Origin: a virus | Taxonomy: Duplodnaviria > Caudoviricetes | Virus record (IMG/VR): IMGVR_UViG_3300021476_000008 | Span: 1-45,932 of that record | DNA length: 45,932 nt | Direction: 5' to 3' (one strand) | Shown: positions 4,068-31,552 of the stretch, piece after piece | Position numbering within the stretch: the first letter of the stretch is position 1 | Layout of the letters: each line of letters starts with the position of its first letter | Position numbers and translations under genes: made by a program | Notes under the pieces: model-generated | Told to the model about the DNA's origin: nothing | The model's input: only the letters and a program-made list of their open reading frames with translations | The model's database searches: none

Positions 4068-5585
4068 ATGCCGTGTCCAACTGGCACGATACAAGCCTGC
4101 GATTTTGCGCAGTTCCTTGTTGACCAGACTCCCCGATTTGACGAGCTAATCATGGAAGATATCCGGCCGACCGACGGCTGGCTTCTAAACATCTCCACCG
4201 GCACCACGCCGATGGGAACCCCGATTGAAGTCACCCAGGACCGCTTCCGTCATGTGTGGCCCAATACCACCAAGACCTGGACGAAGCGCGTCGCCAACGG
4301 CCCTGGCTGCACCGGCTCCCCGTGCGACCCGACCGAGCACCAGATCGCCTGGGGCGCGGACCGGCTCACCTACTTTGCCGAGCAACAGACCTGGGGCACC
4401 CCCCTGCTCTGCTACGACCAGGAGATGCACATCACCCACGCCGAAGAGCACCTGTCGCAAATCATCAACGACATCCTGCGCCCGGCGACCACGGCGATTT
4501 CATCCAACTTCCTGCGCAAGCGGCACCTATTCTGGGCCAAGCAGAAGAACGTAGCCAACGCCACGCTCGACCAGTTCAGCTTCCAGTGGACCAACCCCAT
4601 TACCGGCCTGCTCGGTGGCGTGAACAACGACGACGAGATATTTTTCTACTGCTCCGTCAACCCCAACAACGTCTTCCACCTGGTTCCCCAGATGCTGCAG
4701 AACCGGTTCAGCCCGCTCATGCGGCGCGGTTATGCCGGGAAGAATCCGTTTAAGGAGACGGCCCCGTATATCGAGTTGGTCACCAGCATGGATACCTGCT
4801 GGTTCCTCGATAAGTTGGGCGGCCAGTTGGGCGTAGGCGGCGGTGACCTGCCCAACTCGCTCGGCAACTGGCGGTTCACGGAATGGAACGCCGCCAACGC
4901 TTACTTCCGGTATGGGTTTACCGGTCAAATCGGCAACTACATGGTCCGGGTGGACGAGATGGGGTTGCGCTTCAACTTCGTCCAGGACCTGGGAGTTTCG
5001 GCGGCTCCCAACCGGTTCCAATACCAGATTGTGCTCCCTTACCGGAACCAGATTAGCACCGGTGCTGGTGGTTCCGCCGGTCTGGGCGACGACGCTAACC
5101 CGGACTTCGATAAGGCGCAGTTTGAAATCAGCCACATCTCCCACAAAAAGGGGATGGAGCTGCTGGTTCCCGACGCCCGGCCCATCAACCCGGAAATGCC
5201 CTACGGCCACCGCGACTTCGGCGGCAAATGGCGCTTCGCGATGCACGACCTGGGAGCTGACTCTAACGGCGTGGTCATCGCCAACAAGTGGGAGAACAAA
5301 GGGCAATTCATCGCCTGGTTTGTTTACTACATCCGCCCGCTCCACTATGAGTTCATGGAAGCCTGGTTCCATGCCCGGGAGCAGTTCTGCATCCCGACCA
5401 TTGCCCCTTGCAATCCGTCGCCCGGATACCCGGCGCAATTTTACAGCTCCACGCTGCCGCCTTGCCCGGTGCCCGGTGCGTTCAACGCCCTTTACGGAAA
5501 CTTCCCGTGCGCGGTTCCCACTGGCGCCCAGGACGGACCAGTTCCGCCCGCCGCGAATCAGCCGCCGACGCAGCCGGATATTTAG
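4068..5585 (+). CDS. Major capsid protein
   Basis: 505 aa with strong C-ending codon bias, following the scaffold gene and long leader and followed by a hairpin; Pro/Cys-rich C-terminus. Confidence 0.75.
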   Translation: MPCPTGTIQACDFAQFLVDQTPRFDELIMEDIRPTDGWLLNISTGTTPMGTPIEVTQDRFRHVWPNTTKTWTKRVANGPGCTGSPCDPTEHQIAWGADRLTYFAEQQTWGTPLLCYDQEMHITHAEEHLSQIINDILRPATTAISSNFLRKRHLFWAKQKNVANATLDQFSFQWTNPITGLLGGVNNDDEIFFYCSVNPNNVFHLVPQMLQNRFSPLMRRGYAGKNPFKETAPYIELVTSMDTCWFLDKLGGQLGVGGGDLPNSLGNWRFTEWNAANAYFRYGFTGQIGNYMVRVDEMGLRFNFVQDLGVSAAPNRFQYQIVLPYRNQISTGAGGSAGLGDDANPDFDKAQFEISHISHKKGMELLVPDARPINPEMPYGHRDFGGKWRFAMHDLGADSNGVVIANKWENKGQFIAWFVYYIRPLHYEFMEAWFHAREQFCIPTIAPCNPSPGYPAQFYSSTLPPCPVPGAFNALYGNFPCAVPTGAQDGPVPPAANQPPTQPDI

Positions 5586-8503: not shown

Positions 8504-8508
8504 ACGCT

Positions 8509-8796: not shown

Positions 8797-8799
8797 AGC

Positions 8800-9534: not shown

Positions 9535-9572
9535 CGCTCACCTCTTGAATGGCAGGTGGGGCCGAACGGTCC

Positions 9573-9959
9573 TTAACGGGATATTTGTAGATTGTCCAAC
9601 ACCGACACCGGAGCTGGTGTAAGTGTTGGTTGTGAGAAAGGGCTCTCGCCCCACCAGTTGCTGGCCGTCATTTCGAAGAAATACTGCGCCGGGATGAGGG
9701 ACATGGGAAACGCGAGCTGCGTCCCGTTGCTCACCACTACTGGATTGGTAACCACCGCGACCAGCGGCCAGTTGTTGGAGGCGGCCGTGAGATTGGTGGT
9801 GCCGTATATCCGAAAGGCGTAGGTCGTGGTCCACGACGGGTCGGTCGGCACGTTCCAGAGGAATACCACCACGACCGGCTGGACGGCGCGCGCCAGGGCC
9901 ATCCCCAGCACGAGGATTGCCGCCAGAATCACCGGTAAGACAGTTGTTTTGAATGCCAT
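9573..9959 (-). CDS. Secreted small FN3/Ig-like protein
   Basis: Signal peptide; FLWN, FRIYGTTNLT..NW and YFFEMTASNWWGESPFS (FN3-type). Confidence 0.65.
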   Translation of the reverse strand: MAFKTTVLPVILAAILVLGMALARAVQPVVVVFLWNVPTDPSWTTTYAFRIYGTTNLTAASNNWPLVAVVTNPVVVSNGTQLAFPMSLIPAQYFFEMTASNWWGESPFSQPTLTPAPVSVLDNLQISR

Positions 9960-11779
9960 AACTTATTTGCCTGGTCGCGCACTTCGTTCTTCCAAGCCTG
10001 TTCTCTCGGATTAGCCCGAAATTCGCGCACGTTTTGTATCCTGAACCCCAGCCGCCTGGCCCCCTCCACTCCGCACACCAGGGCGTCGAACAGGTCCGGG
10101 CTCTGCCCAGTCTTCTCCTTCATCTCGGCTTTGGTTTCAATCTCAATCTTGTTTTTGCCGACCATCTTCCATTCCCGCTGGCAGCCCTCCATCAGCACCT
10201 CCTCGGTCATCGCCCGGAACTGTTTGGTTTCCACAATCAGCCTCACGGTGAACCAGAGCTCGGTGACGAACTTGCTGAAGTAATCTTTGCACAGCACGTC
10301 GATGTCGTTGGAGACGCGCCGGTCGCTGGGCGGGCCGCCAAAATCAATGGGGTTCACAGCAGGTGACCACATACGGCCGAATGAGCTGACCAGGGTGGTG
10401 CGCATGCCCGCGTCAAAGAAGAAGTTCGAGGGGGGTATGCCGCGCGAGATGCACTGCTCCATCACGAAAGCCACGATTTGGTCCTCGGCCTCCTGCTGGC
10501 GGATGGCGACTCCGGATTCGGACTTTATTGGCACCACCATCATGTCGATGAGGGCCATGATTTGGCGCCGGTTCCGTTCCCGGTCAGCCTGGTTGATGAT
10601 GGCTGAGGCGCTGGCTTCTTCGGGCGGGGTAACCTCAATCCCAAAGTCCAGCTCTCCGAATATGCATCGGTCTCCACCCACGCCACGGTAAGCCGCGTCC
10701 AGGAAGGCCACTTTGGTCCGCGCATTATTTTGCCAAATCGGCCGGTCAAGGGCTCCGTTCTGCACGCAGAGCGTGCGGGTCAGCACGCGACGGCTGCCCT
10801 GGCCGCGCGGCATGCGGCCCTCGTTAAACATCGTGTAGTGCCAGTCGTCGGTGCCCCAGATTTTGGCGTCGGCCTCCATGTCCTGTTTGGCAATGAGGAA
10901 GTCGAAGATGGGCTCCTGGCCGGGCGGGGTGGCGTTGTTCGGCGAGTCCGATCCGCAGAGCTGAACGCAAACGCCGCTGGGCCACTTGGTTTCCCACGCC
11001 TTGGACTTAGGGCTCTGGTCGATGCCGCCGTCCCATCCATGGTGCTCGCCTGATGGTTCGCAGAGTCGGCCGAGTGAATCGGTGGTCTCCTTGGGGTTCC
11101 CCATGCCGGTGACCTTGCGGTGGCCGCCGGAGCGCTTCATCACGTTGGAGAGGGCGTCGATGAACACCGGCGGCAGGAGCTGCAACTCGTCCCCGCACAT
11201 ATAAAGGAACTTGTTCTTGATGCCGATGAAGTCCCCCAGGCCCACGTAGCTATGGCCCTGTTTGCAGGGCACCCCGATGACGCCGTTGCGGAAGTCACGG
11301 CCCTCGGTTATCTGGTCCCGGTCGTCGGTCACGATGCGCTGTTTGCCCTCAATAAGGTTGCCGTGCAGCCAGCCGTAGCGGCGCTTGGCCTCCCGGTGCA
11401 TCTTCTTAATTTCCCCCCAGATGCGGTCCTCCAGGCGCTCCCGGGTGGTGGAGCAGATGAGGATGGTGCAGCAAGTGGGGTGTGCATAATATGTTAATAA
11501 GTGCATCCAGGCAGCCGTGTTGGTCTTGCCTGAGTCGGTCGGCCCCATGATGCCCACGTAGCGGTGGCTCACCCAGTTGGCCAGGATAAGGTCGTTCCAA
11601 TGGTGCCAGCGCAACTCGGGCCAGGCGTATTTGGCCGCCTCCCGGTAATGGTGCCCCAGTCCCTCACCGGCAAACTCGCCGTTCTGCTTTTTGAACCGGC
11701 CCCCTTTTTCAATCATCGCCAGCTCCAAATGGAACAGGTCCACCGTGTCGGCGTGGCGGAGGTTGTATTTCTCAAACAT
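9929..11779 (-). CDS. terL: Terminase large subunit
   Basis: Walker A GPTDSGKT, Walker B YMCGDE, GMGNP coupling motif, RNase H-like FLDAAYRGVGGDRC and SPDLFDA. Confidence 0.9.
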   Translation of the reverse strand: MFEKYNLRHADTVDLFHLELAMIEKGGRFKKQNGEFAGEGLGHHYREAAKYAWPELRWHHWNDLILANWVSHRYVGIMGPTDSGKTNTAAWMHLLTYYAHPTCCTILICSTTRERLEDRIWGEIKKMHREAKRRYGWLHGNLIEGKQRIVTDDRDQITEGRDFRNGVIGVPCKQGHSYVGLGDFIGIKNKFLYMCGDELQLLPPVFIDALSNVMKRSGGHRKVTGMGNPKETTDSLGRLCEPSGEHHGWDGGIDQSPKSKAWETKWPSGVCVQLCGSDSPNNATPPGQEPIFDFLIAKQDMEADAKIWGTDDWHYTMFNEGRMPRGQGSRRVLTRTLCVQNGALDRPIWQNNARTKVAFLDAAYRGVGGDRCIFGELDFGIEVTPPEEASASAIINQADRERNRRQIMALIDMMVVPIKSESGVAIRQQEAEDQIVAFVMEQCISRGIPPSNFFFDAGMRTTLVSSFGRMWSPAVNPIDFGGPPSDRRVSNDIDVLCKDYFSKFVTELWFTVRLIVETKQFRAMTEEVLMEGCQREWKMVGKNKIEIETKAEMKEKTGQSPDLFDALVCGVEGARRLGFRIQNVREFRANPREQAWKNEVRDQANKLWHSKQLSYR

Positions 11780-11830
11780 CGAATGCTATTGCCAAGGGTC
11801 TGCCAGGCAGTATCGTCCACGTCAAGTGCT

Positions 11831-13681: not shown

Positions 13682-13689
13682 GGTAGCCC

Positions 13690-15138
13690 ATGCCGGCCAT
13701 ACCGTGCTGCACACATATCCTTTGCCCCGGAGGTGGCGTTGGACCGAACTCGCTGGAGTTCGACAGCCCGCTGGCCAATCTTTCGTCGGAGTTGCCAGAC
13801 CAGGATGTTTTTATCGGCCAGAACTTTGGCTACGCCCGATATTCGCAGCCGTTCCTGGGTTCTAACTGGACGCGCAACTCCTGCTTGGGAATCTGCACCT
13901 CGACTGTTTCACAGCAGGCGGCTAATGATTGCGCCGCCAGGAACAATCTTATTTGCGTCACTCCCAGTTGGGGTGTTCCTCCTGGAACTGGCAATAACGG
14001 CGGACCGTCGAGTGGGCCACCTCTCATACCCGCGCCGCCGGGAATAAACCCGCAATTGCAGCTCAACCTGAATCAGTCATGCACAGCCAACTGCAACGAT
14101 CCGGAGAGCACGCCATTTACCTGGACGGTTGCGGCCGGAACCTTTATCGCGGAAAATCAGCTTTTGGCCAACCAAATGGCCTTCTCCAGGGCGTGTCAAT
14201 TGGCCGTGGTTAACATTATCTGCATGAGCGACCCGGCCGCCTGCTGCTGCGGCACACCCTATAGCGGGGTCATCAACGTGACGGGCTCAAACGGTCCTTT
14301 CTCGATCAGCGGCAACCCTCCAACGGGTCTTGGAATTTCACAGTCGGCAGACGGCAGCAAGGTCTTCTTAAGCGGCACCATAGGCTCGCCCGGCAACCAG
14401 CAATTCACCCTCACGGCCACCGACGCTAACGGTAATTTCCAAACGAAGACTTTCATTCTCAAAGTTCTTTGTGTGAGTGGCTCGCCAGGGCAAGCCATAT
14501 TCGGCCAGGCTTACTCTTTTAATTTCACGGGCGGCGGAGGTGACGGGGGGCCTTATAGTTTTCTGCCTTTCCAGCCCCCGCCTCCGCCGGGTCTTGTCCT
14601 GGATCCGAGCGGGCTCCTTCACGGAACACCAAGCCAGGTCGGCACATTTACCTTCGGTGTTGGCATCACCGACAAGAATGGCAACACCTGCGGCACTTCG
14701 GTGACCATGCAGGTGTTGGGTGTCACTAATAATCCGCAAACCGGATCGTATCCGTGCCCGAACAATGGTGCCATCGTGGTTAGTTCTACGGTCCCGGCGG
14801 GCTCGGTCAATTACCCGGTAGGCACGCCGCAACAGGTGGCTGATGCGGCAGCCAGCCAGATGTTGCTAAATCAACTAAACGCAGCGCTTAAGAATTCCGG
14901 TTGCACCTGCGCCGGGGTTAACGTAACCAACGGGGTGATGAGCAATCCGGGATGTCCGACAGGGGCCGAGGCTTGCTGCCAAGTTTGGGTCAGCTCCTGC
15001 CAGGGCAACATGCAGATTACATCCGCGGGAGTCGACCCGATCCATTCCTGCGATGTCTTTGTTGGCAACGCGAACCGGCCGCGCGGCGTCACGATGACTT
15101 TGCCTGGATTTGTCTCGGTGAGTTTTTACGCGACCTAA
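13690..15138 (+). CDS. Cys-rich virion protein with DUF5977-like repeats and putative Ig domains
   Basis: Repeats STVSQQAANDCA, VAAGTF..NQLLANQMA, VPAGSV..QQVADAAA; two PPxGL...G.L.GT...G...F....TD units. Confidence 0.65.
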   Translation: MPAIPCCTHILCPGGGVGPNSLEFDSPLANLSSELPDQDVFIGQNFGYARYSQPFLGSNWTRNSCLGICTSTVSQQAANDCAARNNLICVTPSWGVPPGTGNNGGPSSGPPLIPAPPGINPQLQLNLNQSCTANCNDPESTPFTWTVAAGTFIAENQLLANQMAFSRACQLAVVNIICMSDPAACCCGTPYSGVINVTGSNGPFSISGNPPTGLGISQSADGSKVFLSGTIGSPGNQQFTLTATDANGNFQTKTFILKVLCVSGSPGQAIFGQAYSFNFTGGGGDGGPYSFLPFQPPPPPGLVLDPSGLLHGTPSQVGTFTFGVGITDKNGNTCGTSVTMQVLGVTNNPQTGSYPCPNNGAIVVSSTVPAGSVNYPVGTPQQVADAAASQMLLNQLNAALKNSGCTCAGVNVTNGVMSNPGCPTGAEACCQVWVSSCQGNMQITSAGVDPIHSCDVFVGNANRPRGVTMTLPGFVSVSFYAT

Positions 15139-15141
15139 ACG

Positions 15142-16242
15142 ATGCTGCAGTTGCGCTTATATGACTGCGTGGCGAGCCGGCTGCCGTCCTTGCTGGGGTT
15201 GTGCCAGGCGGATCGCCCCCAAATTGCCAGGTATGTGAACAGCGCCCAGCGACGGCTTCTCTATTGTGCCGAGGCTGGCGATGAAGGTTGGTGGGGCACC
15301 TGGGCGGAGATGGCCTTCACCGTGTCGCTCCCGGCAACGACGACCGCGCCCAATCTCCCTGGTCCGTACCTCACCACCCCCCGGGAAGTTGCCCGCCTGG
15401 AGGCAGTTCAAATCTGCGACCGGCCATATGTGCCGCAAAACCAGTTTTACGAATACCTTCAATTTGGCAATGGCAGGCTCCCCAAGCAGAACTGCTGCCA
15501 GAGGCCACTTATCCGCCAGATATTCACACGTAACAACGTCCCTACCTTTGTGGACATCAACCCGGCCCCGCAGAACATCCTGGCCGCACCCACCAATGCG
15601 GCGGACGTGGGTAAGCGCGTCCTCATTCAGGGCCTGGATAACAACGGTAACGTGATTTATTCACAGGATGGGCTCAACCCGGTCCTGGGACAGTTTGTGG
15701 TGCTCACGCTGCCGTTTGTGAAAATGCCGGTGATGATGAATCAGATTACCGGCATCCAGAAGGATATCACCCAGGGCAACGTGCAGATATTCCAGCTGGA
15801 CCCCAACAGCGGCGTGCAGACTTTGCTCGTTACCATGGAGCCCTCCGAGCAGACTGCTTCCTACCGGCGCTATTACTTCGACAACCTGCCGCCGACGTGC
15901 TGCTTTGTGGCTGCCGGACCTAACGTAACCCTCCCGACGACTCCTCAGGTCCTCACCATCACCGCCATTTGCAAGCTAGAGCTGCAGCCGGTATTTGTTG
16001 ACACGGACTACCTCCTGATCCAGAACCTGGAGGCGATAACCGATGAATGCCAGAGCATCCGCTATTCGGAAGTCGATAATCCGAACTCCAATGTGGCCAT
16101 GTCACGGGCTCACCACCAGAACGCCGTGCGTGCCCTTCGCGGAGAGCTGGCGCACTACCTTGGTATCACCGAACCGGCTGTTGAGTGGGCACCTTTCGGA
16201 GCGGCCCGGCTGGAGAGGCGCAAAATTGGACTCATGCTTTAG
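15142..16242 (+). CDS. Putative head-tail adaptor
   Basis: 366 aa; N-terminal YVNSAQRRLL...GWWGTW helix pattern; position between tail and ejection genes. Confidence 0.55.
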   Translation: MLQLRLYDCVASRLPSLLGLCQADRPQIARYVNSAQRRLLYCAEAGDEGWWGTWAEMAFTVSLPATTTAPNLPGPYLTTPREVARLEAVQICDRPYVPQNQFYEYLQFGNGRLPKQNCCQRPLIRQIFTRNNVPTFVDINPAPQNILAAPTNAADVGKRVLIQGLDNNGNVIYSQDGLNPVLGQFVVLTLPFVKMPVMMNQITGIQKDITQGNVQIFQLDPNSGVQTLLVTMEPSEQTASYRRYYFDNLPPTCCFVAAGPNVTLPTTPQVLTITAICKLELQPVFVDTDYLLIQNLEAITDECQSIRYSEVDNPNSNVAMSRAHHQNAVRALRGELAHYLGITEPAVEWAPFGAARLERRKIGLML

Positions 16243-16245
16243 TCC

Positions 16246-17310
16246 ATGCCTATAAATTATTACAATCCCGGTGGAGTTGCTGGAACAGCTGCCGGATGGG
16301 GTGTTACCGGAGGAACTGGCACCGGCACTCCGGGAAGCGTCATCCACCCCGCAGGCGTGCCACCCACCACCGCTCCTCCTGGAAACGTTGCCCCAGCTGG
16401 TTCGTTCGGCTACAACCCGGCTTACGGCGGCATCCCCTACGTCCCCAGCCCAATCGCCACCCAGGGCGGCGCGCTCACGGGCAACATTGGCAACCTCGGA
16501 AGCATTTACGGTCTGACCACCGGCACTGCCGGAGCCTCCGCGGCGGGAGCCCGGACCCAGATTGGCGCAAACCTTCCCGGCTACGGACCGATGACGCAGA
16601 CGGCCAGCGGGAACATACTCTCGGAACTGCACGGCCAAATCCCTCAAGATGTAGTGAATCAATTGGCCGAGCAGGCGGCTGAACGAGGCGTGGGATTTGG
16701 GGCGGGCGCGCCAACCACCAACGCATCCCTGTTGCGCGCTCTGGGATTAACGTCCCTTGGCTTAATGGAACAGGGCAACCAGGACCTGACTGGGGCAATT
16801 GGGCGCACGCCCGTAGGCCCGGCGGTGAACCCTTCCGGTTTCCTGGTGAGTCCGGAACAGGTGCAGGGCGCGGCGACGGCGGCGAACCTTTATGGCGCGG
16901 CTCCCATCCCGGAGCAGGCTGCGGCAGCCGGAATCGCCGCCGCCGGAACTGCTCCGACGGTTCGCGCGCCTGGAATTGGCGGTGGCGGCGGCGCTGCCCC
17001 TTTCGGCGGAGCCCCACTGCCGACGGCCGCTGCCGCCCCGCTGTTCGGCACAGCCGGTCCAACTGGAACAGTAAGTTCGCAGCCGAGCGCCTCGGCTTAC
17101 CAAAATTGGAACGACTGGTATAACAGTCTCTTCGGCGGTGGCAATACCACCGGCGGTGGGCCTGGTGAATTCGCCGGGATGTCTCCGGAAGATGCGATGT
17201 TCTACAACACCTACGGAATGTTTGCGCCAGGCTCCGAAACGGGAGGCAATGCCGCAGGAGCCCAGGTCCCCGGAGTAGAGGATTACTACGGCACTGGGCC
17301 ATACGACTGA
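16246..17310 (+). CDS. Putative ejection (internal virion) protein, Gly/Ala/Pro-rich
   Basis: 354 aa low-complexity protein with QAAERGVGFG helical core; synteny. Confidence 0.55.
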   Translation: MPINYYNPGGVAGTAAGWGVTGGTGTGTPGSVIHPAGVPPTTAPPGNVAPAGSFGYNPAYGGIPYVPSPIATQGGALTGNIGNLGSIYGLTTGTAGASAAGARTQIGANLPGYGPMTQTASGNILSELHGQIPQDVVNQLAEQAAERGVGFGAGAPTTNASLLRALGLTSLGLMEQGNQDLTGAIGRTPVGPAVNPSGFLVSPEQVQGAATAANLYGAAPIPEQAAAAGIAAAGTAPTVRAPGIGGGGGAAPFGGAPLPTAAAAPLFGTAGPTGTVSSQPSASAYQNWNDWYNSLFGGGNTTGGGPGEFAGMSPEDAMFYNTYGMFAPGSETGGNAAGAQVPGVEDYYGTGPYD

Positions 17311-18272
17311 TGGCTGAGGGATATCCACTTCCTCCATGGCTGCACGGCGTCTCGGCTGGTGAGGTAGGCCAGCTGGCTGCCGGTGCCCAGTCGCGTATTC
17401 TGCAAGGCTCGGAGGCCCAGGCCCGGCTCAACATGCAGGCCCAGGAAGAGTCGCAGCGATTCGCCATGGAGTCCGCGCGACTGGAACAGGAACGGCAGTC
17501 CCGGCAGTTGCAGCTCGAACTGGCCAGCCGCGGGCTGCAGGAGGAGTCTCAACGCCGATATGCGCAGATTGAGATGCAGCGCCAATATCACGACCAGGCC
17601 ATCAATGTCGCGCAGGACCGGTTGAAGCTGCAGTCTCAGGCAGCCGCCAGAAAATACTCCGCCCAGGCAAATTTACAGGCCGACTTGGCCGCGGCTGGTG
17701 ATGATGAGGCTGCCAAGCGCGCCGCCGTGCTCAAGTGGGGTCCGGAAATTGGTGGCATGGCCACCGCCGTTTCCGGCGCGCTGCGCGCCGGAGCCAATGC
17801 GCGCCAGTATGGGCCAATCACGATGAGTGATTTGGGTGGCGGGGTCCGCGCCGCTTACCGTGAGGGTAGTCCCGGGTTGCATATCATTCCTCCAGCCAAA
17901 AGCCGCGAACCTACGCCTGGACAATTGGCGCAACTGGCGAGAGAGATTCCGCACCTGGAGGCAATTTCAAAAGCCGTGCCTGGGGGTATGTCTGAGCGCT
18001 TGCTCAAGCTCCTTGGTCCCATGATAGAAGGCGCACCGACCAGTGGCACCTCCACTTCTCAATATCCCATCGCCCCGCGAGATGCAAAGCGCCGGGTGGT
18101 GAACCAGATTTACCAAACCCCTAAAGGTCCATACCTATGGGGTAAGGATAAGGACGGTAAGATAGGTTGGATGCTGCCGCCCGAAACTGAGACTGGACAA
18201 ACGCCTGCGGCGACGGAAACTGAGGAAGAACCGGACACCGACGAAATGGGTCTGGACATTCCAGGTGACTGA
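17310..18272 (+). CDS. Putative ejection protein, Gln/Ala coiled coil
   Basis: 320 aa, TGATG coupling on both sides. Confidence 0.55.
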   Translation: MAEGYPLPPWLHGVSAGEVGQLAAGAQSRILQGSEAQARLNMQAQEESQRFAMESARLEQERQSRQLQLELASRGLQEESQRRYAQIEMQRQYHDQAINVAQDRLKLQSQAAARKYSAQANLQADLAAAGDDEAAKRAAVLKWGPEIGGMATAVSGALRAGANARQYGPITMSDLGGGVRAAYREGSPGLHIIPPAKSREPTPGQLAQLAREIPHLEAISKAVPGGMSERLLKLLGPMIEGAPTSGTSTSQYPIAPRDAKRRVVNQIYQTPKGPYLWGKDKDGKIGWMLPPETETGQTPAATETEEEPDTDEMGLDIPGD

Positions 18273-21200
18273 TGCCGGATACACTCACGGACGAGCAGGT
18301 TGGCCTTGGCCCGGATCAAGTTTTTAGTGATGCGGACGTAGGGCTCTATGGCCCAGAGGAAGCGCTGCCATTTTCCCTCAGGGCCGCCCAAACCGCCACC
18401 GTCCTGGGCACCGGCATGCTGCGAACCGGCATGCAGTCTCAGGCGCGGATGCGGCAACAGGAGGAGGAAGAATGGCAGAAACGCAGAAGCGCCGCTTATA
18501 TTCCGCAGTTCACCGACTTGGGCATCCCGCTCGGCACCGAGTCGGAGGAGATGCAGAGAGGTTTCCGGGAAGGGGCGGTGGAACCATTGTTCCACCTTCC
18601 CCGCCCAAGCGGCACTGACCCAAGATGGATTGCGGCATTGACCGCTGCGCTTGGACAGGCTCCAACGCCTGAACTTTCAGGCGAACTGGCCGGTGCGGCA
18701 GGCGCAGCCGAGGGTGCGGTGGAAACCTCTTTGGGGACACCAGTCGGGCTGGCGACCGCCGGTATGGGAGTTGGCCCCGGGGGAGCCATTTCGCGTCCGC
18801 TTCTCGGAGCCGCCTGGGGCGGATACATGGCCAGTCAGGTGCCGCAATCAGCTCGCGAAGCCGGGAGACTTTCAGTTGAGGGAACGCCACGAGAACAAAC
18901 CGAAGCCTATTTGAACCTGGGCGGTAACGTGATTCTGCCGGGCTTTATAGGCGCAAATGTAATTCCGCGAACGAAAGGACTAATCGATGCCAGCCGTATC
19001 CAAGAAGCAACAGCAGTTCATGGCGATTTGCGCGCACAACCCGGGCAAGGCCCGGGGCAAGTGCCCACCGAAGTCAGTGGCGCAGGAGTTCAGCCACCGC
19101 CCGAAGAGGTGGCCAAAACGGCACAAGTATCACTGACACCGGTTGACCCCTACAACGCGCTGGAGCGTGAGGCAATTGACCATGCTGAGCGCTTAGGGGG
19201 CAACGCCGATGTGGTTGAGGCCACCACTGATCCGCAAACGCCATTTGCCCGGCGCATTGCCTGGGTTGGCAGTGACGGCCGCATTAAGATTAACCGTGGT
19301 GAATTCCGGGAGTGGCTCTCCTGGGTGCCCGAGGAACGCCGTTCGGCCGCCATTGAATCCCTCATTGGCGAGGAGCACATCCACTCCAAGGTCACCGACG
19401 AGATGGCTAAATCCTACTGGAACAACCTCACCGGCCTGGAGAAATGGCTCGTGCGCCGCCGATATTTGGGCAAGGACATCAGCCCACTGGAGCGAGCCAA
19501 GTTTGATGACACGGCTCTCGGTCACGAAGCAATTCGCGGACGCATCCAGCAGCTCACCCGCGCTACGCCGCGCGAGATTGCGGAGGCTGTGGGCCGCGAG
19601 AAGTGGACGGTCAAAATCATCTATGCCCTGGAGAGGGCAATTGCTTCAGTGCGTAAGGCACTGGGCACCAAGGCGAGCTGGGCGCAGAAGGCAATCCTGG
19701 AACGGGTGCAGCAGAATTTGGAGCTGGCGAAGGGCGTCGTCGCACCGTCCAGCGGGCCATCAGCGTTCAGGAAGCGGTCGGACGAGGAGTTGTCAGATTC
19801 GGTGAAGATGTTCCGCGACCAACTCCCGCAGGAAAAGACCGGCGTTGGCGGTGGGACCAATCGCGCGCATGCGGCTGGGCTGGGGGCCAGAACGGTGGCC
19901 GACCTGGATGCGCTAGCCCAAATGCGCCTGGACTCTCACATGCGTGGAAAGGGTATTAAGGATTTGAATGAAAAGATGGTGGAAATGATGCGCGGTCAAT
20001 ACGCACGTGAAGCCATCGAGACCGCTACCGATACGGGGAGCAATGCCGAGGTTGAGTGGGCCGGGCGCGGCGCGCCACTCGGCCCTCGTCCATTGGATTG
20101 GAGAAACAACCCCGATGTTGCCAACTGGCTGCGGGAGCACGGCCCGGCGATTGGTATTGCCCTGCCGGATGCACTGCGTGAGTCCGAATACATGGGCTAC
20201 CTCACCGAGGAGGAGCGGAAAGGACCGACTGCCGCCTTCGGGAAACGTCGTGGTCCCAAGCCAGGCCCAGGTAAGGAGGGCAAGGCTGGGGAGCAGCCAG
20301 AGTTGTTCGGGGAGCCAATAACTGCCAAAGGGGTGCCGGGAGCGGAGACTGTTCCACGTGGAACGAGAGGGTCAGCCCAAGAACTGGGGGCTGCCCAAGG
20401 CGTCACGACCCAGGATGTTCTGCCAATAATTCAGCAGCACCTGGAGGAACAGGAGCGACCGAGCTTCAAGGGAATGCTGGACTGGTTCCAGCGCAATGCG
20501 GGGCGGCTGGGAATCACGGCGGCACAGGTGCGACCCATCTGGGAGGACACTCTCTGGAGCCACCTGATGAATGCCAAGCCAGAGAGGCTGGAGCAATTGC
20601 GCAAGGAGCTGAAGCTGGAGAGCCGGTTGGGTAAAAGGCCAATCCAGCAAGTTGAGATGCCCACGGCAGAACAGGCCGTTGAAGGCACTGCGCTTACGCG
20701 AGAACGGGAGAGGAAGGGCAGAGTCTCAGCTGAAAAATACCGGTTCACGATCATCTCCGGAATTGCCCGCAAACTGCTCGGTGAATCCACCGAACGCGCC
20801 AAACCACTCAACCGGACATCCATCACCCTGGATGACATTGATTTCTCCAGTGACCGCACCACTGCGGGAGCCTACCGCGAGATTCGCCCGGACGAGACGG
20901 ACAATCTTGACCGACTTTATCAGGTTTTCTCAGACTGCGCCAGGCCATCTAAGGAGGAACCAGAAACCAATACTTGCCGCGTGGGCGCATTCCTGGACCC
21001 CAGAACCGGCCACATCGAGCTATTGGACGTTTATCCTTACGGCGTGAGGGACCGTTTTGGCAAGCAGGTGGAACGCGGTATCCGGGTGTATGAGCCAACT
21101 GGTGGCACCGGCATCAAGAACAAACCGCACATCACCTTGAAGGAGTTGCTGGGGAGAGGATACAGGCCAATTGCCTCCATACTGCTGGACGACCCGGTTA

Positions 21201-24200
21201 AGGACTTTCACCAGCGCTTCGACAGCTTGACTGATTTCAATGATGCCATTGCAGAAGAAGGGGCAAACCGCAGCAAGGTGGCGGATTGGGCTTGGGCGGG
21301 AGAGCCGGAAGAGGGTGCAGCCGACATCTCGGACGTTCTAGCTCAAATGGAGGCATCAGAGCAGGAAGCTGAAATGGAAGAGGAAACGCCGCCGACCATG
21401 CAGGCGGGAACCTTCCAAGGGCCGGGGAAAAAGACGGTGCAGGCATTGCTGGGATATGTCCGGGGAGAGCTGCAGCGCGCGGAAACCGTGCCTCTCACCG
21501 GCGGTGAGGCAAATGCCGTCCGGGAGCACGTCCTTGACTTTGCCGGTCGGGAGCCCACTGCCGAGGATTTCCGCGAGGCCATGGAGGACATAGGGAAGCG
21601 GGTTACTCAAGCCGGGACTCCTTACGCTCCGGTGGGCAAGCGCCGGACCTTCACGCAGTTAATGCAGACCTTGCCGCGCTATGTAATCCGTGGCCGGGAC
21701 CGCCAAGTGATTTCCGCCTTCAAAAAGGCTGCCGACTTCATCCGACGCAAATACGGTGAAACCATTCTGACGCCTGACCAGGCGATGGAACAAGCTTTTG
21801 ACGAATTCTATGAAACCATCACGCAAGCCAAAGACCCCGAAGAGTTTACCCAAAAAGCCCTGGGGCGATTTACCGAGCCAGTTTCTGAAACTCGCGGCCT
21901 CATTACCCCGACGGTCCCTGGCGCGCCTCCAGGAGCCGCCCCGACCGAGCTGAGCATGCTGGCTCGCCGCGCGCCAACGGCAGTGGCTGGAATGGCCCCT
22001 GGCGTGCCCCCAGAGATGACGGAGGCCCGTCCGGCTCCTCCCACACCACCGGAGATGCTCCCGCCTGGCGCACAGGCTGCCGTGGAGCAGCGCGCGGCCG
22101 AGGAATTCCCGGTTGAATCAAAACCGCCCGTTGGCCTAGCCAAACCAGCCGGTGGACCAGCGCTCTACTATCCGCCCCTGGAGATTGACCCCACCAAAGG
22201 CCCTGGAAAGTATTACAAGCCATCCAGTGGCCCCCGGGCTGCCGCCTGGAACAAGATGAAGAGCCGGGCCGAGGAGATGCTCTCCACTACCGCCCTGGAG
22301 CTGGGGGCCAAGTTCAAACGCAAGCAGTTGGAGGATGACCTGGCGGCAACGGTTGACGTGCGGCAAAACGTTGCCAATATCCAGGGCGACCAGGCCGAGC
22401 ACCGCATTCGCAGTTTTGCGAACTTGTCCAAAGAACACCCGAACGGTGACCCGGAGATTTTGAGGGCGGCAGCAGCCGTGATTGCCGTCCGTGGAAGGAA
22501 GCAATTCACTCCGGGACTCATCAAGCTGGCCGAAAACGGCATTGTCAAAGGTGAGAATATTGCGCAGTCCATGGTGCCCTGGAAGCGGCCAATTGGCCGT
22601 GCTCAGGCGGACGCCGCCCGTGAACTCAAGGCAGCCGCCGAGTATGCTCTGGACCACTGGACCGACCCCGCGTTGCAAAACACAGCCAAGGCCATGATGG
22701 ACGAGATGGACGCGCAGTATGCCCGGGAGATTGCCGTGGGTAAGAGGCTGCGCTACCGGCAGAACTACTTCCCCGGCCGATATGATGGCATGTTCTGGAA
22801 TGATACCAATATCAGCTTTCCGGGCGTCGGCCGCCTCTCGGTCCTGGGCCGTAATTGGAGGATGCCCAAAACGTTCGACAATATGTGGGTTGCCATCGCC
22901 GCCGATGGCCCTTACATCCCGGCAGCTCTTGATGGCGCGGCCATTGTGGGCCACCGCGTGCGGCAGGGCATGGGCTACATCAACCGGAAATTGTGGCGGG
23001 AGAATCTGCTGGAGATTAACGACCCGGTCAGTGGTGAAAGAATAGCGCGCCGGCCGCGCAGCACTCCCGAGGGGATGCGAATCCCGGGTCCCAATGCCGC
23101 CAATTACGAACTGCTGACGATGGGGCCGATGGAGACCCTGGCAGTGCGTAAGGGATACTCCTCCCTGATCAATGCGCTCACCCAACCAAGCTGGTTCCAA
23201 AAGTATCAGCTTACCCGGGCTGCGGTTGAAACCGCCATGCGGCTCAAGCACTCGCTGCTGGCCGGTGACATCTTCCACCTGTTCCGTGAGATGTATTACG
23301 GCGTAGCTACGACGGGGACCCAAGTTGGGTTCAGGGCTGGCAGGGCAGCCCTGGAGTATGACGACGCTTCACTGCAGCGCGCAGTTCAGGCTGGAGTGGT
23401 GAGCAAGGCCGACGCCGACTGGAGCCGTCAGCAAGTGAATGTGAGGGTGGGAAATCAGAGCTTCCCAATGACCCGAAGGCAAATCCTGGAGCAGGGCATT
23501 GCGCGAGGTTTTAATGTTGGCCGCATCCAGGACGCCATCTACCGCGACCTGGTGAACACCATGCCGGTGGTCGGGAAAGCGTTGAAAGTCTACAATCGAT
23601 GGCTGTTCGACGATTGGACTCGCGGGCTTATGTCCGAGGCTTACGTCCGGAACTTTGAGGTGCTCAACAAGAAGCACCCGAACGTGGACTGGGGAGTGCT
23701 CGCCCGGGATGTGGCCAGGGACACCAACACGTTCTTCGGCTCTCTGGGCAGGCAGGGGTGGATAAAATCCGAGACGTTTCAAGACCTGTCCCGCCTGGCC
23801 TTCCTGGCTCCGCAGTGGGTGGAGAGCCTCCTGCGCAAAGAGATTGGCGCATACGGCCGACTGGGGGCCTACGCCCTTTCGAAGGCCGGGCTGGAAGTTG
23901 GCCGGACCAAAGCCGGTCTTCCGGCGTTTGGCATGCTTGGCAAAGGCATGGGCAGAGGACTGGCGGCAATGTTCGCCATCACCCAAATTGTCAACCTTAT
24001 CAGCCGTGGGAAGCCCACCTGGCAGAATCCAGAGAAGGGGCATATGTGGGATGCGTGGGTGCAGGTGGGGGACCATGGCGTGTGGATTTCCCCTCTCTCC
24101 ATTTTCAACGAACTGCTGCACGACGTTTTGCGTTACTCGGTTTCCAAGCCCAAGGTCCACGACGCCATTCAGCAGATAGGCCAAAACAAATTGGGGCCTT

Positions 24201-24817
24201 ACAGCCGGGCGATTGTGGTCCTGGCGAGCAGCCGCACTCCTACCGGGCAACTCATCACCACCACCCCGAGGGTTTACGGTGAGGCGGCCAAGCAACTGTT
24301 CCCGGTGCCAATTGGTGCCTCTCAAGTTCTGCGCGCCGCCGTTCACCCGTTGGTTCCCGGTCTGGTTTCAGCCCCACCGCCGGGACAGGTCGCGCGCCAG
24401 GCGTTCTCCACGCTGGGTGTGAAGGCGGAGCCAGCGCAATCGCCGCAGCAAGAGCTTTACAGCATGGCGCAGGATTTCCTGGCCAAGTCAGGAATGAAAA
24501 AGGAAACGGGGTTTCAGGAAGTGCCGACCGTGGAAGCGTCCTTCACGAGGCTGAGACAGGCGATTGGCCAGAACGACATGGCCGGGTTCGAATGGAATTT
24601 GAAGCACCTGATGAAGAACCGGAATGTGGGCGATGTCATCGACGGCATGAAGCGGTGGGTGGACCGGCCCATTACCGGGAACCGCAATGCGGATGACCAG
24701 TTCTTGACGACGCTGACTCCGGAGCAGTTTAAGGTTTACTCCCAGGCCCGGGAGGACAAGTGGAAGACCTACATTGATTTCTACCGCATGCTCTTTAAGA
24801 GCGAAGGGGTTAGGTAG
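18272..24817 (+). CDS. Giant ejection / polyvalent protein (2181 aa)
   Basis: Last late gene, mostly helical, with a metallopeptidase-like segment (GRIKINR...LIGEEHIH...LGHEAI). Confidence 0.7.
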   Translation: MPDTLTDEQVGLGPDQVFSDADVGLYGPEEALPFSLRAAQTATVLGTGMLRTGMQSQARMRQQEEEEWQKRRSAAYIPQFTDLGIPLGTESEEMQRGFREGAVEPLFHLPRPSGTDPRWIAALTAALGQAPTPELSGELAGAAGAAEGAVETSLGTPVGLATAGMGVGPGGAISRPLLGAAWGGYMASQVPQSAREAGRLSVEGTPREQTEAYLNLGGNVILPGFIGANVIPRTKGLIDASRIQEATAVHGDLRAQPGQGPGQVPTEVSGAGVQPPPEEVAKTAQVSLTPVDPYNALEREAIDHAERLGGNADVVEATTDPQTPFARRIAWVGSDGRIKINRGEFREWLSWVPEERRSAAIESLIGEEHIHSKVTDEMAKSYWNNLTGLEKWLVRRRYLGKDISPLERAKFDDTALGHEAIRGRIQQLTRATPREIAEAVGREKWTVKIIYALERAIASVRKALGTKASWAQKAILERVQQNLELAKGVVAPSSGPSAFRKRSDEELSDSVKMFRDQLPQEKTGVGGGTNRAHAAGLGARTVADLDALAQMRLDSHMRGKGIKDLNEKMVEMMRGQYAREAIETATDTGSNAEVEWAGRGAPLGPRPLDWRNNPDVANWLREHGPAIGIALPDALRESEYMGYLTEEERKGPTAAFGKRRGPKPGPGKEGKAGEQPELFGEPITAKGVPGAETVPRGTRGSAQELGAAQGVTTQDVLPIIQQHLEEQERPSFKGMLDWFQRNAGRLGITAAQVRPIWEDTLWSHLMNAKPERLEQLRKELKLESRLGKRPIQQVEMPTAEQAVEGTALTRERERKGRVSAEKYRFTIISGIARKLLGESTERAKPLNRTSITLDDIDFSSDRTTAGAYREIRPDETDNLDRLYQVFSDCARPSKEEPETNTCRVGAFLDPRTGHIELLDVYPYGVRDRFGKQVERGIRVYEPTGGTGIKNKPHITLKELLGRGYRPIASILLDDPVKDFHQRFDSLTDFNDAIAEEGANRSKVADWAWAGEPEEGAADISDVLAQMEASEQEAEMEEETPPTMQAGTFQGPGKKTVQALLGYVRGELQRAETVPLTGGEANAVREHVLDFAGREPTAEDFREAMEDIGKRVTQAGTPYAPVGKRRTFTQLMQTLPRYVIRGRDRQVISAFKKAADFIRRKYGETILTPDQAMEQAFDEFYETITQAKDPEEFTQKALGRFTEPVSETRGLITPTVPGAPPGAAPTELSMLARRAPTAVAGMAPGVPPEMTEARPAPPTPPEMLPPGAQAAVEQRAAEEFPVESKPPVGLAKPAGGPALYYPPLEIDPTKGPGKYYKPSSGPRAAAWNKMKSRAEEMLSTTALELGAKFKRKQLEDDLAATVDVRQNVANIQGDQAEHRIRSFANLSKEHPNGDPEILRAAAAVIAVRGRKQFTPGLIKLAENGIVKGENIAQSMVPWKRPIGRAQADAARELKAAAEYALDHWTDPALQNTAKAMMDEMDAQYAREIAVGKRLRYRQNYFPGRYDGMFWNDTNISFPGVGRLSVLGRNWRMPKTFDNMWVAIAADGPYIPAALDGAAIVGHRVRQGMGYINRKLWRENLLEINDPVSGERIARRPRSTPEGMRIPGPNAANYELLTMGPMETLAVRKGYSSLINALTQPSWFQKYQLTRAAVETAMRLKHSLLAGDIFHLFREMYYGVATTGTQVGFRAGRAALEYDDASLQRAVQAGVVSKADADWSRQQVNVRVGNQSFPMTRRQILEQGIARGFNVGRIQDAIYRDLVNTMPVVGKALKVYNRWLFDDWTRGLMSEAYVRNFEVLNKKHPNVDWGVLARDVARDTNTFFGSLGRQGWIKSETFQDLSRLAFLAPQWVESLLRKEIGAYGRLGAYALSKAGLEVGRTKAGLPAFGMLGKGMGRGLAAMFAITQIVNLISRGKPTWQNPEKGHMWDAWVQVGDHGVWISPLSIFNELLHDVLRYSVSKPKVHDAIQQIGQNKLGPYSRAIVVLASSRTPTGQLITTTPRVYGEAAKQLFPVPIGASQVLRAAVHPLVPGLVSAPPPGQVARQAFSTLGVKAEPAQSPQQELYSMAQDFLAKSGMKKETGFQEVPTVEASFTRLRQAIGQNDMAGFEWNLKHLMKNRNVGDVIDGMKRWVDRPITGNRNADDQFLTTLTPEQFKVYSQAREDKWKTYIDFYRMLFKSEGVR
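18987..19136 (+). CDS. Nested out-of-frame 49-aa basic protein (MPAVSKKQQQFMAICAHNPGK...)
   Basis: +1 frame inside the giant gene with its own GAAAGGAC RBS. Resembles the common phage MPxxSKxQxxFMA..AHNP...SVAxEF family, as I recall it. Confidence 0.7.
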   Translation: MPAVSKKQQQFMAICAHNPGKARGKCPPKSVAQEFSHRPKRWPKRHKYH

Positions 24818-25013
24818 CCTCGGCGCGCAGTATCCGCGCCATCTTTTCCAGCAGCTCCGCCACTCCATCAGGCGGCACTTGGTTAATGGAGGCCGAAGTG
24901 GCGCACAAATTTCCATCCTCGTGCAGGACGATAGTGATGACGCACTTGGCGTTCAGCCGGTCACGGGTGATGCTGCAAAAGTTCTGGAGCTGCTCGGTCG
25001 TTATGTGCCGCAT
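24810..25013 (-). CDS. Hypothetical protein, 67 aa
   Basis: GGAGGT RBS; converges on the giant gene. Confidence 0.6.
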   Translation of the reverse strand: MRHITTEQLQNFCSITRDRLNAKCVITIVLHEDGNLCATSASINQVPPDGVAELLEKMARILRAEAT

Positions 25014-25360
25014 TGGACTACCTCCACCTCGGTTCTCTCTTCCCACCAATGTTTCACCTGTTGCTGACAGACCTGGACTTGCGCCCATTGCGGCGAGTCG
25101 TCAAAAATGACTCCAGACGCAACGAGTGCGTCAACAACGTAGTGGTCCCAAAGGTTCCGCTCGTCAAGGAGATGCGCGCGGTAGCTCGTAATGCGCACAA
25201 TACTGCGGAACGGGTCAGCACTCTTTCTCGGTGCCGCTCCCACGGGTTCATGGCCAGGATTTGGTTTTTGCTCGGTAGCGGGTGATGCACCGTCAGTCTT
25301 AGCGTAGCTGCCGTCGGCCTGACGACGAAACCCTTTGGCGATAAGTTCTTGTTCATTCAC
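25001..25360 (-). CDS. RusA-like Holliday junction resolvase
   Basis: LDERNL...VVDALVASGVIFDDSP and terminal RTEVEV strand. Confidence 0.75.
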   Translation of the reverse strand: MNEQELIAKGFRRQADGSYAKTDGASPATEQKPNPGHEPVGAAPRKSADPFRSIVRITSYRAHLLDERNLWDHYVVDALVASGVIFDDSPQWAQVQVCQQQVKHWWEERTEVEVVQCGT

Positions 25361-25402
25361 GCGAGTTCAATTCGGCCGCACCGTGTATTTGAACCTTCCA
25401 GC

Positions 25403-26185
25403 TCACTGGTTCCTCCAAACCATGCACCTTACCATGGATTCAATCCCCAGGCGGTTGCCACCGGCGGCTACGTAATCGCGGATATCCTTGGCGGGCATGA
25501 CCAGGATGCAGGATGGGATGCTGAGGTGTTCCTGGAGGTTTTGCGCACCGCGCAGCCCGGGGTCGTCATCGTCAGCCACGACAATAGCTTTTTTAATACC
25601 CAGGCGTTTGAACGCGATGCGCAAATGTTGGACGCCGCCGGAGCAGGACGGCCTGCCGATGGCGAAATACCCCAATGTGAGCGCTGCGGCGCAATCGCTC
25701 GGTCCCTCACAGACTACGACTGTTTTATCAGGCTCACACCGGGGTAGGAATATCCCCGCGTGACTGCCCTTCACCGCAAACTTTGAGCCATCCGCTGTCC
25801 GAAGTCTAACGCCAATATAACCGCCCGCCCCATCCCGCATGGGGAAGGCCCAGGCCCGGTGATGGATGCTCCAGCCGCACTCCAATGCGTAGAGGGCGTC
25901 CACTGAAACTGACAGCTCCTGCGCCAGCCGGGGCACGCCGGCGCAAGTGCATTGCGCCATGATGGCCGCCACATCGATGACGGGCTCAGGCTCGGGCTTT
26001 GCCCGGACGTAGCTGACTGTTTGGCCAATTTGGTAAAGCCAGCCATCCTCGCCGGACTTCAAGTGAAACGGCCGGCCGCCCCGGGCGCGCATGCACAGCA
26101 CGGCGTTGTCGCTGTAAAGGCACCAAGTGTCGTGCTCGCAGATGGGGCACTTATTCCACCTGCTTACTCTTTTCCATGAATTCAT
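25403..26185 (-). CDS. Primase-like protein (Zn finger + TOPRIM)
   Basis: CPICEHDTWC, FPMRD, VVCEGPSD, VVADDDDPG, KDIRD. Confidence 0.8.
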   Translation of the reverse strand: MNSWKRVSRWNKCPICEHDTWCLYSDNAVLCMRARGGRPFHLKSGEDGWLYQIGQTVSYVRAKPEPEPVIDVAAIMAQCTCAGVPRLAQELSVSVDALYALECGWSIHHRAWAFPMRDGAGGYIGVRLRTADGSKFAVKGSHAGIFLPRCEPDKTVVVCEGPSDCAAALTLGYFAIGRPSCSGGVQHLRIAFKRLGIKKAIVVADDDDPGLRGAQNLQEHLSIPSCILVMPAKDIRDYVAAGGNRLGIESMVRCMVWRNQ

Positions 26186-26366
26186 TTGGGGTGAAGAGCT
26201 CGGTTTGCAATGAACAAAGCCTCAGGCAGTGGGCTAGCGGCACCAGCCATTCCCGGCGGGAACGGTGTTGGCGAATCCATAAGCCGTCCGTGCGTAACTC
26301 CAGCCTGTAGCGCTGGCCGCTCAGCTCGATCTTGATGCGGCCAAATACGCGGCGTGTGCGTTTCAT
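26151..26366 (-). CDS. Hypothetical basic protein, 71 aa
   Basis: ATGA overlap with the upstream gene; contains QTELF. Confidence 0.55.
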   Translation of the reverse strand: MKRTRRVFGRIKIELSGQRYRLELRTDGLWIRQHRSRREWLVPLAHCLRLCSLQTELFTPNEFMEKSKQVE

Positions 26367-26725
26367 GATAGATGAATGAGATGGAGGACTGTGGTGAGCG
26401 CCCAATACTCGGGGTTGAAAAATCCCGCGAAGACCAGCTCGCCGTATTCCAGTGCGGAAATCACAATAATTAATCCAAGCACAACGCCGCAAACGCCTGA
26501 CGCAAGTCCGGAAATCGCGTAATTGTCGTCCTCCTTGTATTTCTCAATGCTCCACTTGAACCATCGGACGCATGCGTAGAGGCAACCCCAGAGCAAAAAC
26601 CATTCGAATAGGGTTATCGCCGCGCTCCAAGGCGCTTGCCGCACAAGGACGCGCCACAGGTGCTCGCTGGTGGTGCCCATTTTCTCCGCCAGCTGGTGGA
26701 GCAGTTTTGTAGTTTCTTCGTTCAT
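26363..26725 (-). CDS. Membrane protein, 120 aa
   Basis: Two TM helices; GAAAGGACAG RBS. Confidence 0.7.
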   Translation of the reverse strand: MNEETTKLLHQLAEKMGTTSEHLWRVLVRQAPWSAAITLFEWFLLWGCLYACVRWFKWSIEKYKEDDNYAISGLASGVCGVVLGLIIVISALEYGELVFAGFFNPEYWALTTVLHLIHLS

Positions 26726-26734
26726 CTGTCCTTT

Positions 26735-28432: not shown

Positions 28433-28794
28433 AGCTTCCCCTTCTTTTCCCGCATGTCGCGCAACTCCTTGGGCACCGAGTGCCAGCGCACAATGGAGAT
28501 AATCCGGTGATTGCGGCAGAGCGCGCAGTTGACCTCCTCCCTGCCCTGGCACATCCCGCACACGGCGTAGGGCGCGAATTTGGATAGCATCGCCATCACC
28601 CCGTGGAGGGTGTCGATTATGTCCTTGTAGCTGTCGTGCAGCTCCCAGAAAAGCGGGTCCTTATCCTTGCCAGCCCGGGCCAGGGTGTCATACGCCTCCT
28701 GAAGGTGGTTCAGTAAACCAGCAAACCGGGCGCTAGCGGCGTCGTAGCAGTCTTCGAGCTCTTTGGGAATGGTGTGTTTGGTCTTGTCTCTCAT
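28429..28794 (-). CDS. Hypothetical protein with CxxC...CxxC
   Basis: 121 aa, CGMC and CALC; coupled to the helicase. Confidence 0.7.
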   Translation of the reverse strand: MRDKTKHTIPKELEDCYDAASARFAGLLNHLQEAYDTLARAGKDKDPLFWELHDSYKDIIDTLHGVMAMLSKFAPYAVCGMCQGREEVNCALCRNHRIISIVRWHSVPKELRDMREKKGKL

Positions 28795-28968
28795 GGGTAA
28801 AACGCGCCGCCCCCCGTAGAATCCTGTTAGCGACCGAAGAGGAGGGTGAGGAACCCCTGGTCAAGCCAGTGGACGGCGCAAGGTTTGAAGCAGCGTTGCA
28901 GACAGGATTCATTTATGAGTGACTCCTAATTACAGCACCCCGGCCCGCAACTTACAATTTAAACTTAC

Positions 28969-29091
28969 TTACTTTTTTCTCCTGGTTATCCACAGGAAAC
29001 TCACAATGGAAGCCACCGCCACAATCGCCGCGGCCAGGTGTCCGCGCCCAGTCTGCGCTAAATTTGACAGTTTCTCCCATTGGTCCGGCAT
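28969..29091 (-). CDS. 40-aa single-TM protein
   Basis: TGATG coupling; LAAAIVAVASIVSFLWITRRKK. Confidence 0.5.
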   Translation of the reverse strand: MPDQWEKLSNLAQTGRGHLAAAIVAVASIVSFLWITRRKK

Positions 29092-30574: not shown

Positions 30575-30576
30575 TA

Positions 30577-31536: not shown

Positions 31537-31552
31537 AGTGGATTATACGTTC

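Follow-up and report, generated by a model that had tools for sequence, protein, structure and literature searches.

A small basic gene nested out of frame in a giant phage gene, and its probable standing as the older of the two frames

Background

The locus described here raises three questions: whether a 49-codon open reading frame (ORF) that lies out of frame inside the gene for a 2181-residue protein of a tailed phage is itself a gene, how it came to lie there, and what its product might do. The window, which is the whole stretch of 45,932 nucleotides that was analyzed, is a phage record that CheckV rates as 83% complete; its plus-strand virion operon ends in the giant gene (Table 1). An initial annotation had proposed a hidden gene at this place, and the coordinates, the translation and the +1 frame that it gave for the ORF within the 2181-aa gene were reproduced in the present work. 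A literature search, thin on subscription journals, returned no paper describing such nesting or DUF3008, a family that is discussed below as a distant relative.

Table 1. Positions of the nested gene, its host and the other features of the window referred to in the text
Feature	Position	Strand	Remarks
Nested small gene	18987..19136	+	49 codons, +1 frame of giant gene 18272..24817
Shine-Dalgarno GAAAGGA	18973..18979	+	7 nt 5' of nested ATG; start region unstructured
Host giant gene, 2181 aa	18272..24817	+	last gene of plus-strand virion operon
Host-frame linker	18986..19135	+	giant aa 239-288, the stretch overlain by the nested ORF; P/Q/A/E/G-rich, predicted disordered
Folded domain after the slot	19148..19741	+	giant aa 293-490; pLDDT mostly >85 (AlphaFold2)
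Probable major capsid protein	4068..5585	+	Atlas lead only; no PDB sequence match
Terminase large subunit	9929..11779	-	phrog_2, E 3.8e-7
Conserved marker gene, 366 aa	15142..16242	+	upstream of giant; used for independent sampling of relatives

Results

The host gene

The initial annotation called the giant an ejection gene; the 2181-aa gene is there, and the label came from its size and position, the product having no Pfam, PHROG or PDB match. We infer a head-packaged protein of the ejection or polyvalent type. Polyvalent proteins, in the excerpts of PMC5512222, are marked by recognised domains such as a zincin-like MPTase and by a late-gene context; the giant has the late-gene context, and the motif is EEHIH in this genome and HExxH in 5 of 20 relatives' giants. 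The folded domain that follows the overlap may, by motif only, be zincin-like; it has no PDB or Pfam match, and its globin rows in Foldseek are non-significant. Elsewhere in the virion operon, the terminase large subunit gene lies mid-operon on the opposite strand and is overlapped by a 705-aa ORF (listed start 11564) whose true start is probably later. A 426-aa protein encoded at 634-1914 (+), whose sequence looks ATP-grasp-like, has no Pfam or PHROG match.

The nested frame and its start signals

The nested ORF encodes a protein with 12 K/R, 1 acidic residue and 4 His, and an aromatic C-terminal tail. Its open length alone proves nothing, because 695 of the 2131 49-codon windows in the giant's +1 frame contain no stop. 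Against a profile built from 63 non-nested copies only, the nested ORF scores 87.7 bits (E 2e-26), and the runner-up among the window's 1209 six-frame segments reaches 6.2 bits with the same profile.

The initial annotation had also recognized the core of the phage's early ribosome-binding site before the nested ATG, and this holds: the window holds 18 copies of GAAAGGA where 6.4 would be expected, a count reached in none of 100 shuffles, and 14 of the 18 sites sit 3-10 nt 5' of an ORF of at least 49 aa, 13 of these ORFs being minus-strand early or replication genes. The sequence GAAAGGAC is common to the minus-strand early genes (window 25000-41100). The plus-strand virion genes (257-18272) have a weak or absent Shine-Dalgarno sequence (SD), none of the 14 starts checked being as strong as -5 kcal/mol, and the nested gene is the plus-strand exception in having a strong one.

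The main frame was said to look like a disordered linker, which agrees with the AlphaFold2 model, where the overlap has no secondary structure and a pLDDT of about 30-50. Gene callers did miss the inner frame, as had been foreseen: in a collection of 15 billion called proteins the giant and three of four stand-alone copies are present, and all five nested copies looked up (P0001 and four others) are absent. One public DNA run containing the giant matches it without differences; as the run may be the giant's source, this argues only against a simple assembly slip. Eleven other +1/+2 ORFs inside the giant are unsupported as genes; the six that were scanned have no PHROG match, and among all loci these ORFs gave one weak tblastn match, which contains a stop. 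As judged from sequence comparison, the nested 49-codon ORF is very probably a real, translated gene, likely expressed by internal initiation on the late mRNA.

Recurrence of nesting

A search with the small protein yielded 174 loci (L001-L007, L081-L247) with 133 distinct copies, 62 of which are covered by an open frame of at least 300 aa. In two of them (L105, L114) the module is the tail end of a different protein and the following gene overlaps the module; without these, 60 nested copies remain, this genome's own record (L161) included; L189 holds one further nested copy on a short, cut contig. The small gene is in the +1 frame of its host in all nested loci, and none of 73 Cys-free freshwater-type loci (L008-L080) has it nested in a long same-strand frame. 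The host giants are mosaic and often just 25-40% identical, in patches, and uninterrupted homologous giants in other relatives carry the small gene directly after the stop. Stand-alone homologues thus exist, and relatives that nest the gene retain an open +1 frame with its start codon and SD, so that the proposal of a hidden gene stands on both counts. An SD of -5 kcal/mol or stronger precedes 54 of the 60 nested starts, as against 280 of 1433 other +1-frame ATGs, and the start region is less structured than 80% of control windows at 55 of the 60. When giants were chosen by their flanking domain, only 5 of 15 showed the shadow of family A, the family of the nested protein.

Some loci depart from the common arrangement. 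L270 (=L148) carries two full tandem copies of the nested gene, at giant aa ~307 and ~438, and L081/L261 a partial second copy at giant aa ~282, the host frame being open in both cases. In eight loci of another phage group (L089, L098, L104, L107, L109, L115, L116, L140) the module lies directly before a ~810-aa gene, and there it ends either a short ORF or a longer protein.

Selection on the two frames

Selection was evaluated over an ungapped core of 36 codons, with all pairs pooled and without tree correction, in 54 nested copies (7 with indels dropped) and 63 non-nested copies (6 with indels and 3 near-duplicates dropped). The small-frame pN/pS is 0.36 in nested and 0.33 in non-nested copies, the former value indicating purifying selection on the nested frame, much as in stand-alone copies; the host-frame pN/pS is 1.41. 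The invariant residues are alike in nested and free copies. The host frame is under constraint all the same, and the third-position entropy falls from 1.52 in free to 1.01 in nested copies. In family A, T occupies 2% of fourfold sites in nested copies vs 18% in free ones, a shift repeated in the other occupant families described below (2% vs 11%), and the C/W/F/Y/L/M/stop share of host-frame residues is 1.3% vs 16%. A synonymous T that gives a host stop is found at 0 of 434 junctions in nested copies and 95 of 465 in free ones, a difference that follows in part from the definition of "nested". The host frame holds stops in 50 of the 63 non-nested copies and is already open in 13.

These data bear on which frame is the older. 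The host-frame linker is found solely over nested copies, and the inner protein is widespread, jumbo phages included, so that by the phylogenetic distribution criterion, as set out in the excerpts of PMC8227390, the small gene counts as ancestral and the linker as derived. The disorder of the linker and its avoidance of stops and bulky residues likewise mark the nested gene as the older frame. Classical overprinting, in which the inner gene arises de novo, calls for a narrower distribution of the inner frame, which was not found. A single origin of family-A nesting is compatible with the data (p-AU 0.11); the small-gene tree has 36 columns and little signal. Two propositions go beyond the initial annotation: that the small gene is ancestral, and that its slot is exchangeable between families.

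An exchangeable slot

Relatives were sampled independently through the 366-aa marker gene, in order to avoid selecting on the small gene, which gave 144 loci in 111 clusters, 86 of them with the giant in view. A small basic gene is nested in 48 of these 86, lies just after the giant's stop in 13 and upstream in 4; in the remaining 21, 8 of which have the giant cut, there is none within 10 kb of the marker. The nested occupants belong to families A (34), B (2), C (4), D (4) and E (4), the after-stop occupants to A (7), C (1), E (2), F (2) and G (1), and the upstream occupants to A (2) and G (2), where families B-G were chosen by eye from SD-led, MP-starting basic ORFs. PHROG matches were obtained for 2/2 members of B, 3/5 of C and 2/5 of E. 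When profiles were compared, A, D and E showed a weak link (probability 66-94%), and no relation to A was seen for B, C, F or G; the nested occupants come from five families (A-E), at least three of which are mutually unrelated.

All 14 nested genes of families B-E are in the +1 frame, and 13 of the 14 have a strong SD, vs none of six after-stop genes of families C-G; 6 of 11 after-stop family-A copies have one as well. The giants of L255 (occupant B) and L261 (occupant A) are 80% identical over 1427 aa and their occupants are unrelated, and the giant of L274, which is colinear with that of L321 (43% identical end to end), has an empty slot with a linker that is different and about 30 aa shorter. 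One-clade tests on the marker tree, in a 33-row subset, rejected a single clade for "after-stop" (p-AU 6e-8), for "C nested" (p-AU 7e-47) and for "B nested" (p-AU 1e-6), although recombination between marker and giant could also scatter the occupants on this tree. An aromatic C-terminal pair is present in 36 of 61 nested A copies, in 15 of 21 free A copies of this phage group and in 8 of 19 B-G proteins, and in only 3 of 48 other A copies, with group membership assigned from context. Families F and G stand in tandem after the giant's stop in L297:11999-12400 and L325:8876-9300; G alone lies upstream of the marker in L279 and L305, and family A takes that place in L281 and L283.

A tentative reading of this pattern, which is possible rather than probable, is that the giant's linker is an exchangeable expression slot for unrelated small basic genes and that its occupants are a general class of portable capsid-loading modules that has so far gone unrecognised. 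If so, basic genes would have been swallowed, swapped and released repeatedly with the host frame intact, and these protamine-like head proteins would bring head proteases and other cargo with them into the prohead.

The small-protein family

The resemblance to a widespread small phage family, noted in the initial annotation, has proved correct: PHROG 16759 matches residues 1-39 of the nested protein (E 8e-7), and a profile search found 485 cluster representatives with E values of 0.001 or below. Twenty called proteins of 48-79 aa match the nested protein at 67-90% identity, and weak matches link it to the N-termini of two PHROGs labelled "virion structural protein". Distant homologues are found in the Chimalliviridae (phiKZ gp165.1, 201phi2-1 gp383, EL gp94, Moabite, Phabio) and at the N-terminus of Asteriusvirus gp51 (phAPEC6 gp161c). 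PHROG 16759, phiKZ gp165.1 and the gp51 N-terminus have a two-helix N-terminal module in common with the nested protein. The subfamily to which the nested protein belongs is set apart by an invariant Cys pair (C15, P19, C26-P27 and F35 are its invariant residues) and an aromatic C-terminal tail, whereas the homologues from cultured phages lack both cysteines and none is nested; evidence from them therefore carries over only loosely.

The AlphaFold2 model of the nested protein (pLDDT 74) has helices at 6-17, 19-22 and 29-36 and a loose basic tail. It has no PDB match by sequence or Foldseek, and its fold neighbours in BFVD, at E values of at least 0.13, belong to the family and come from 2050HW, 201phi2-1, Phabio and EL. 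Membership of DUF3008 (PF11450) was rejected, since P0001 and 27 close relatives gave no match at Pfam's 24-bit gathering score; in a wider set of 96 relatives, 4 match at 17-20 bits, below that cut-off, and an Atlas cluster with 37% DUF3008, matched at 0.93, is a lead only. DUF3008 may accordingly be kept as a distant lead, remoter than the relatives named above. A text match to "165.1" in the excerpts of PMC10643120 proved to be an accession number and not the phiKZ gene. In phiKZ, Phabio and 201phi2-1 (L251:2501-2677; L250:3501-3704; L252:1471-1734) the homologue stands alone on the strand opposite its neighbours. The S-x-E motifs in the tails of these three homologues are ones that we take to resemble the phiKZ head-protease site.

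Role of the small protein

All occupants are 45-65 aa long with a net charge of +7 to +13, and every occupant position falls within the virion operon. Module A forms the N-terminus of DUF2213/phrog_530 head-maturation proteases (P0103, L221, L223) and of phAPEC6 gp161c, and in L107 it lies directly 5' of the portal gene. The gp161c protein was detected in virions by mass spectrometry (MS), with 6 unique peptides and 28.9% coverage (PMC7247149 Table 1, in excerpt), the peptides being unmapped to the module. Module B, which is unrelated to A, forms the N-terminus of Obolenskvirus head-maturation proteases. The occurrence of the unrelated A and B both at the slot and fused to proteases suggests a role in prohead loading or DNA neutralisation, and the two protease-fused families taken together with the virion-detected fusion make a head-internal basic protein the likeliest role, at somewhat better than even odds. 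Against it stand the lack of an occupant in a quarter of the relatives and the observations on the phiKZ and 201phi2-1 homologues given in the Discussion. A head-internal protein would be taken into the prohead by means of the helical module or the aromatic tail and may neutralise or organise the packaged DNA, a dispensable job that would be open to unrelated basic proteins. The full reading, namely a nested gene expressed by internal initiation, whose basic product would be carried in the head and whose nesting would have arisen when the giant's frame crossed an older gene, is given a probability of about 0.56.

Discussion

Alternative explanations

The most serious competitor, doubtful in our estimate, accepts the gene and holds that its protein remains in the infected cell, as a late factor that binds nucleic acid or acts against the host, and is no part of the virion. 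It would explain why the record of 201phi2-1 gp383 has no virion-MS note when that of its neighbour gp382 has one, and why PHIKZ_p52 is not among the p5x rows listed in the phiKZ proteome file of Fossati 2023 (PMC10449902, in excerpt). It also suits the dispensability of gp165.1 in phiKZ, which follows from tolerated transposon insertions at 3 and 6 sites (PMC12676376, in excerpt). Exchange among unrelated families on the tree is typical of accessory conflict genes as well, and the RSB1 family-B homologue sits after lysis genes. Very basic 5-kDa proteins are, however, easily lost in tryptic MS, and a cell factor accounts poorly for the fusion of two unrelated occupant modules to head proteases, for the fusion of one module to a virion-detected protein, and for the confinement of all occupant positions to the virion operon.

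It is considerably less probable that the small protein serves the giant specifically, as its partner or packaging chaperone, with nesting coupling their synthesis as in Rz/Rz1. The gene does lie inside or directly behind the giant in 61 of 65 occupied relatives, but the occupants are unrelated to one another, the giants are mosaic and often barely alignable, the colinear giant of L274 has no occupant at all, and four copies are found at a distance from the giant, upstream of the marker.

Programmed frameshifting into or out of the frame, which would join the module to the giant's N-terminal or C-terminal part, is improbable to a further degree. An internal SD can stimulate frameshifting, and the module is naturally fused N-terminally to large virion proteins (e.g. 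phrog_22033); against this, the start codon (ATG/GTG) and its distance from the SD are conserved, this genome has a +1-frame stop two codons 5' of the ATG, and X XXY YYZ heptamers are absent here and are scattered and differing in the 22 of 61 nested loci that have them.

Least credible is an untranslated +1 frame, a relic or the shadow of a conserved host-frame motif, for although the gene is known from sequence alone and a VHGDV-like motif recurs in the host frame, identical host-frame letters lie behind non-nested copies, with stops there in 50 of 63, variation gathers at the small frame's third position while host-frame pN/pS exceeds 1, and SD and start codon are retained across giants just 25-40% identical.

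Comparison with known systems

The nested gene resembles Rz/Rz1 in architecture, the spacer of the HBV polymerase in proposed origin, and the ShiLan domain in that an older gene serves as a host loop; it is a member of none of them. In Rz/Rz1 of lambda and T7 (PMC6139136, in excerpt) a small gene likewise lies wholly inside another, in the +1 frame and over a flexible linker, and is often overlooked by annotation, and stop-codon loss is discussed as an embedding route for spanins. These are, however, fixed lysis partners for which that paper found no family having both embedded and non-embedded forms, whereas at the present slot embedded, adjacent and absent states coexist and occupants are exchanged among unrelated families. 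An embedded spanin of the Rz1 type, which calls for a lipoprotein signal in the inner gene and an i-spanin with an N-terminal TM as host, was rejected, since on inspection the N-terminus is basic without a hydrophobic signal stretch and the host is a 2181-aa protein.

The HBV spacer over Pre-S (PMC8227390, in excerpt) is alike in its proposed origin, an outer-frame linker formed de novo across an older short gene, and in joining two domains; it arose once, long ago, in a compact eukaryotic virus, whereas here the setting is tailed phages of ~55 kb, the process is reversible and several inner genes are involved. ShiLan, an HNH domain lying out of frame within an actinophage methylase (PMC11855218, in excerpt), is also a pre-existing gene that was inserted out of frame and is read by its host as a stop-free loop; it is a selfish homing nuclease, in contrast to a nested protein of 49 aa that has no nuclease motif and has free copies in the virion operon. 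A hidden homing endonuclease of the ShiLan type was rejected in view of the length of 49 aa, the lack of a Pfam or PHROG nuclease match and the all-helical model. T4 IPI-III (PMC9958956, in excerpt), which are small, non-essential, loaded into the prohead core and equipped with a portable N-terminal targeting element, are an analogy in proposed role only, with no sequence similarity behind the comparison.

Implications

A gene swallowed in this way would have come to overlap by a path that is the reverse of classical overprinting, and because free, adjacent, nested and empty states all occur among living relatives, the origin of the nested gene can be studied directly. Genes open to being swallowed are predicted to be small and basic, with a minus-one frame that reads as a disordered linker. 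The other occupants likely encode head-packed proteins overlooked by annotation, in which case a very common class of small phage proteins would be systematically absent from annotations. The fusion pattern suggests a function that can be put to the test for several large uncharacterised families, among them that of phiKZ gp165.1 in a tractable laboratory phage.

Route to nesting

The giant's reading frame likely ran across an older free-standing gene. Codons rich in K/R/H/P, read one base back, would give P/Q/A/E/G and hence a harmless linker, and the gene would have been swallowed through stop loss, or through modules being shuffled where the giant's N-terminal part meets its variable cargo; once nested, a copy would need a strong SD of its own. 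That the minus-one frame yields P/Q/A/E/G, and that 13 of 63 free copies are already open in it, make swallowing by either means possible. The nested gene is also found in short hosts, at L299:13029-14174 (382 aa), at L361:12530-14152 (541 aa) and in L225 (387 aa), which may be intermediates or the result of misassembly. The long cargo of L299 and L361 is an ORF separate from the short host, and hosts of 382 and 541 aa with a separate cargo ORF fit a route of read-through followed by fusion.
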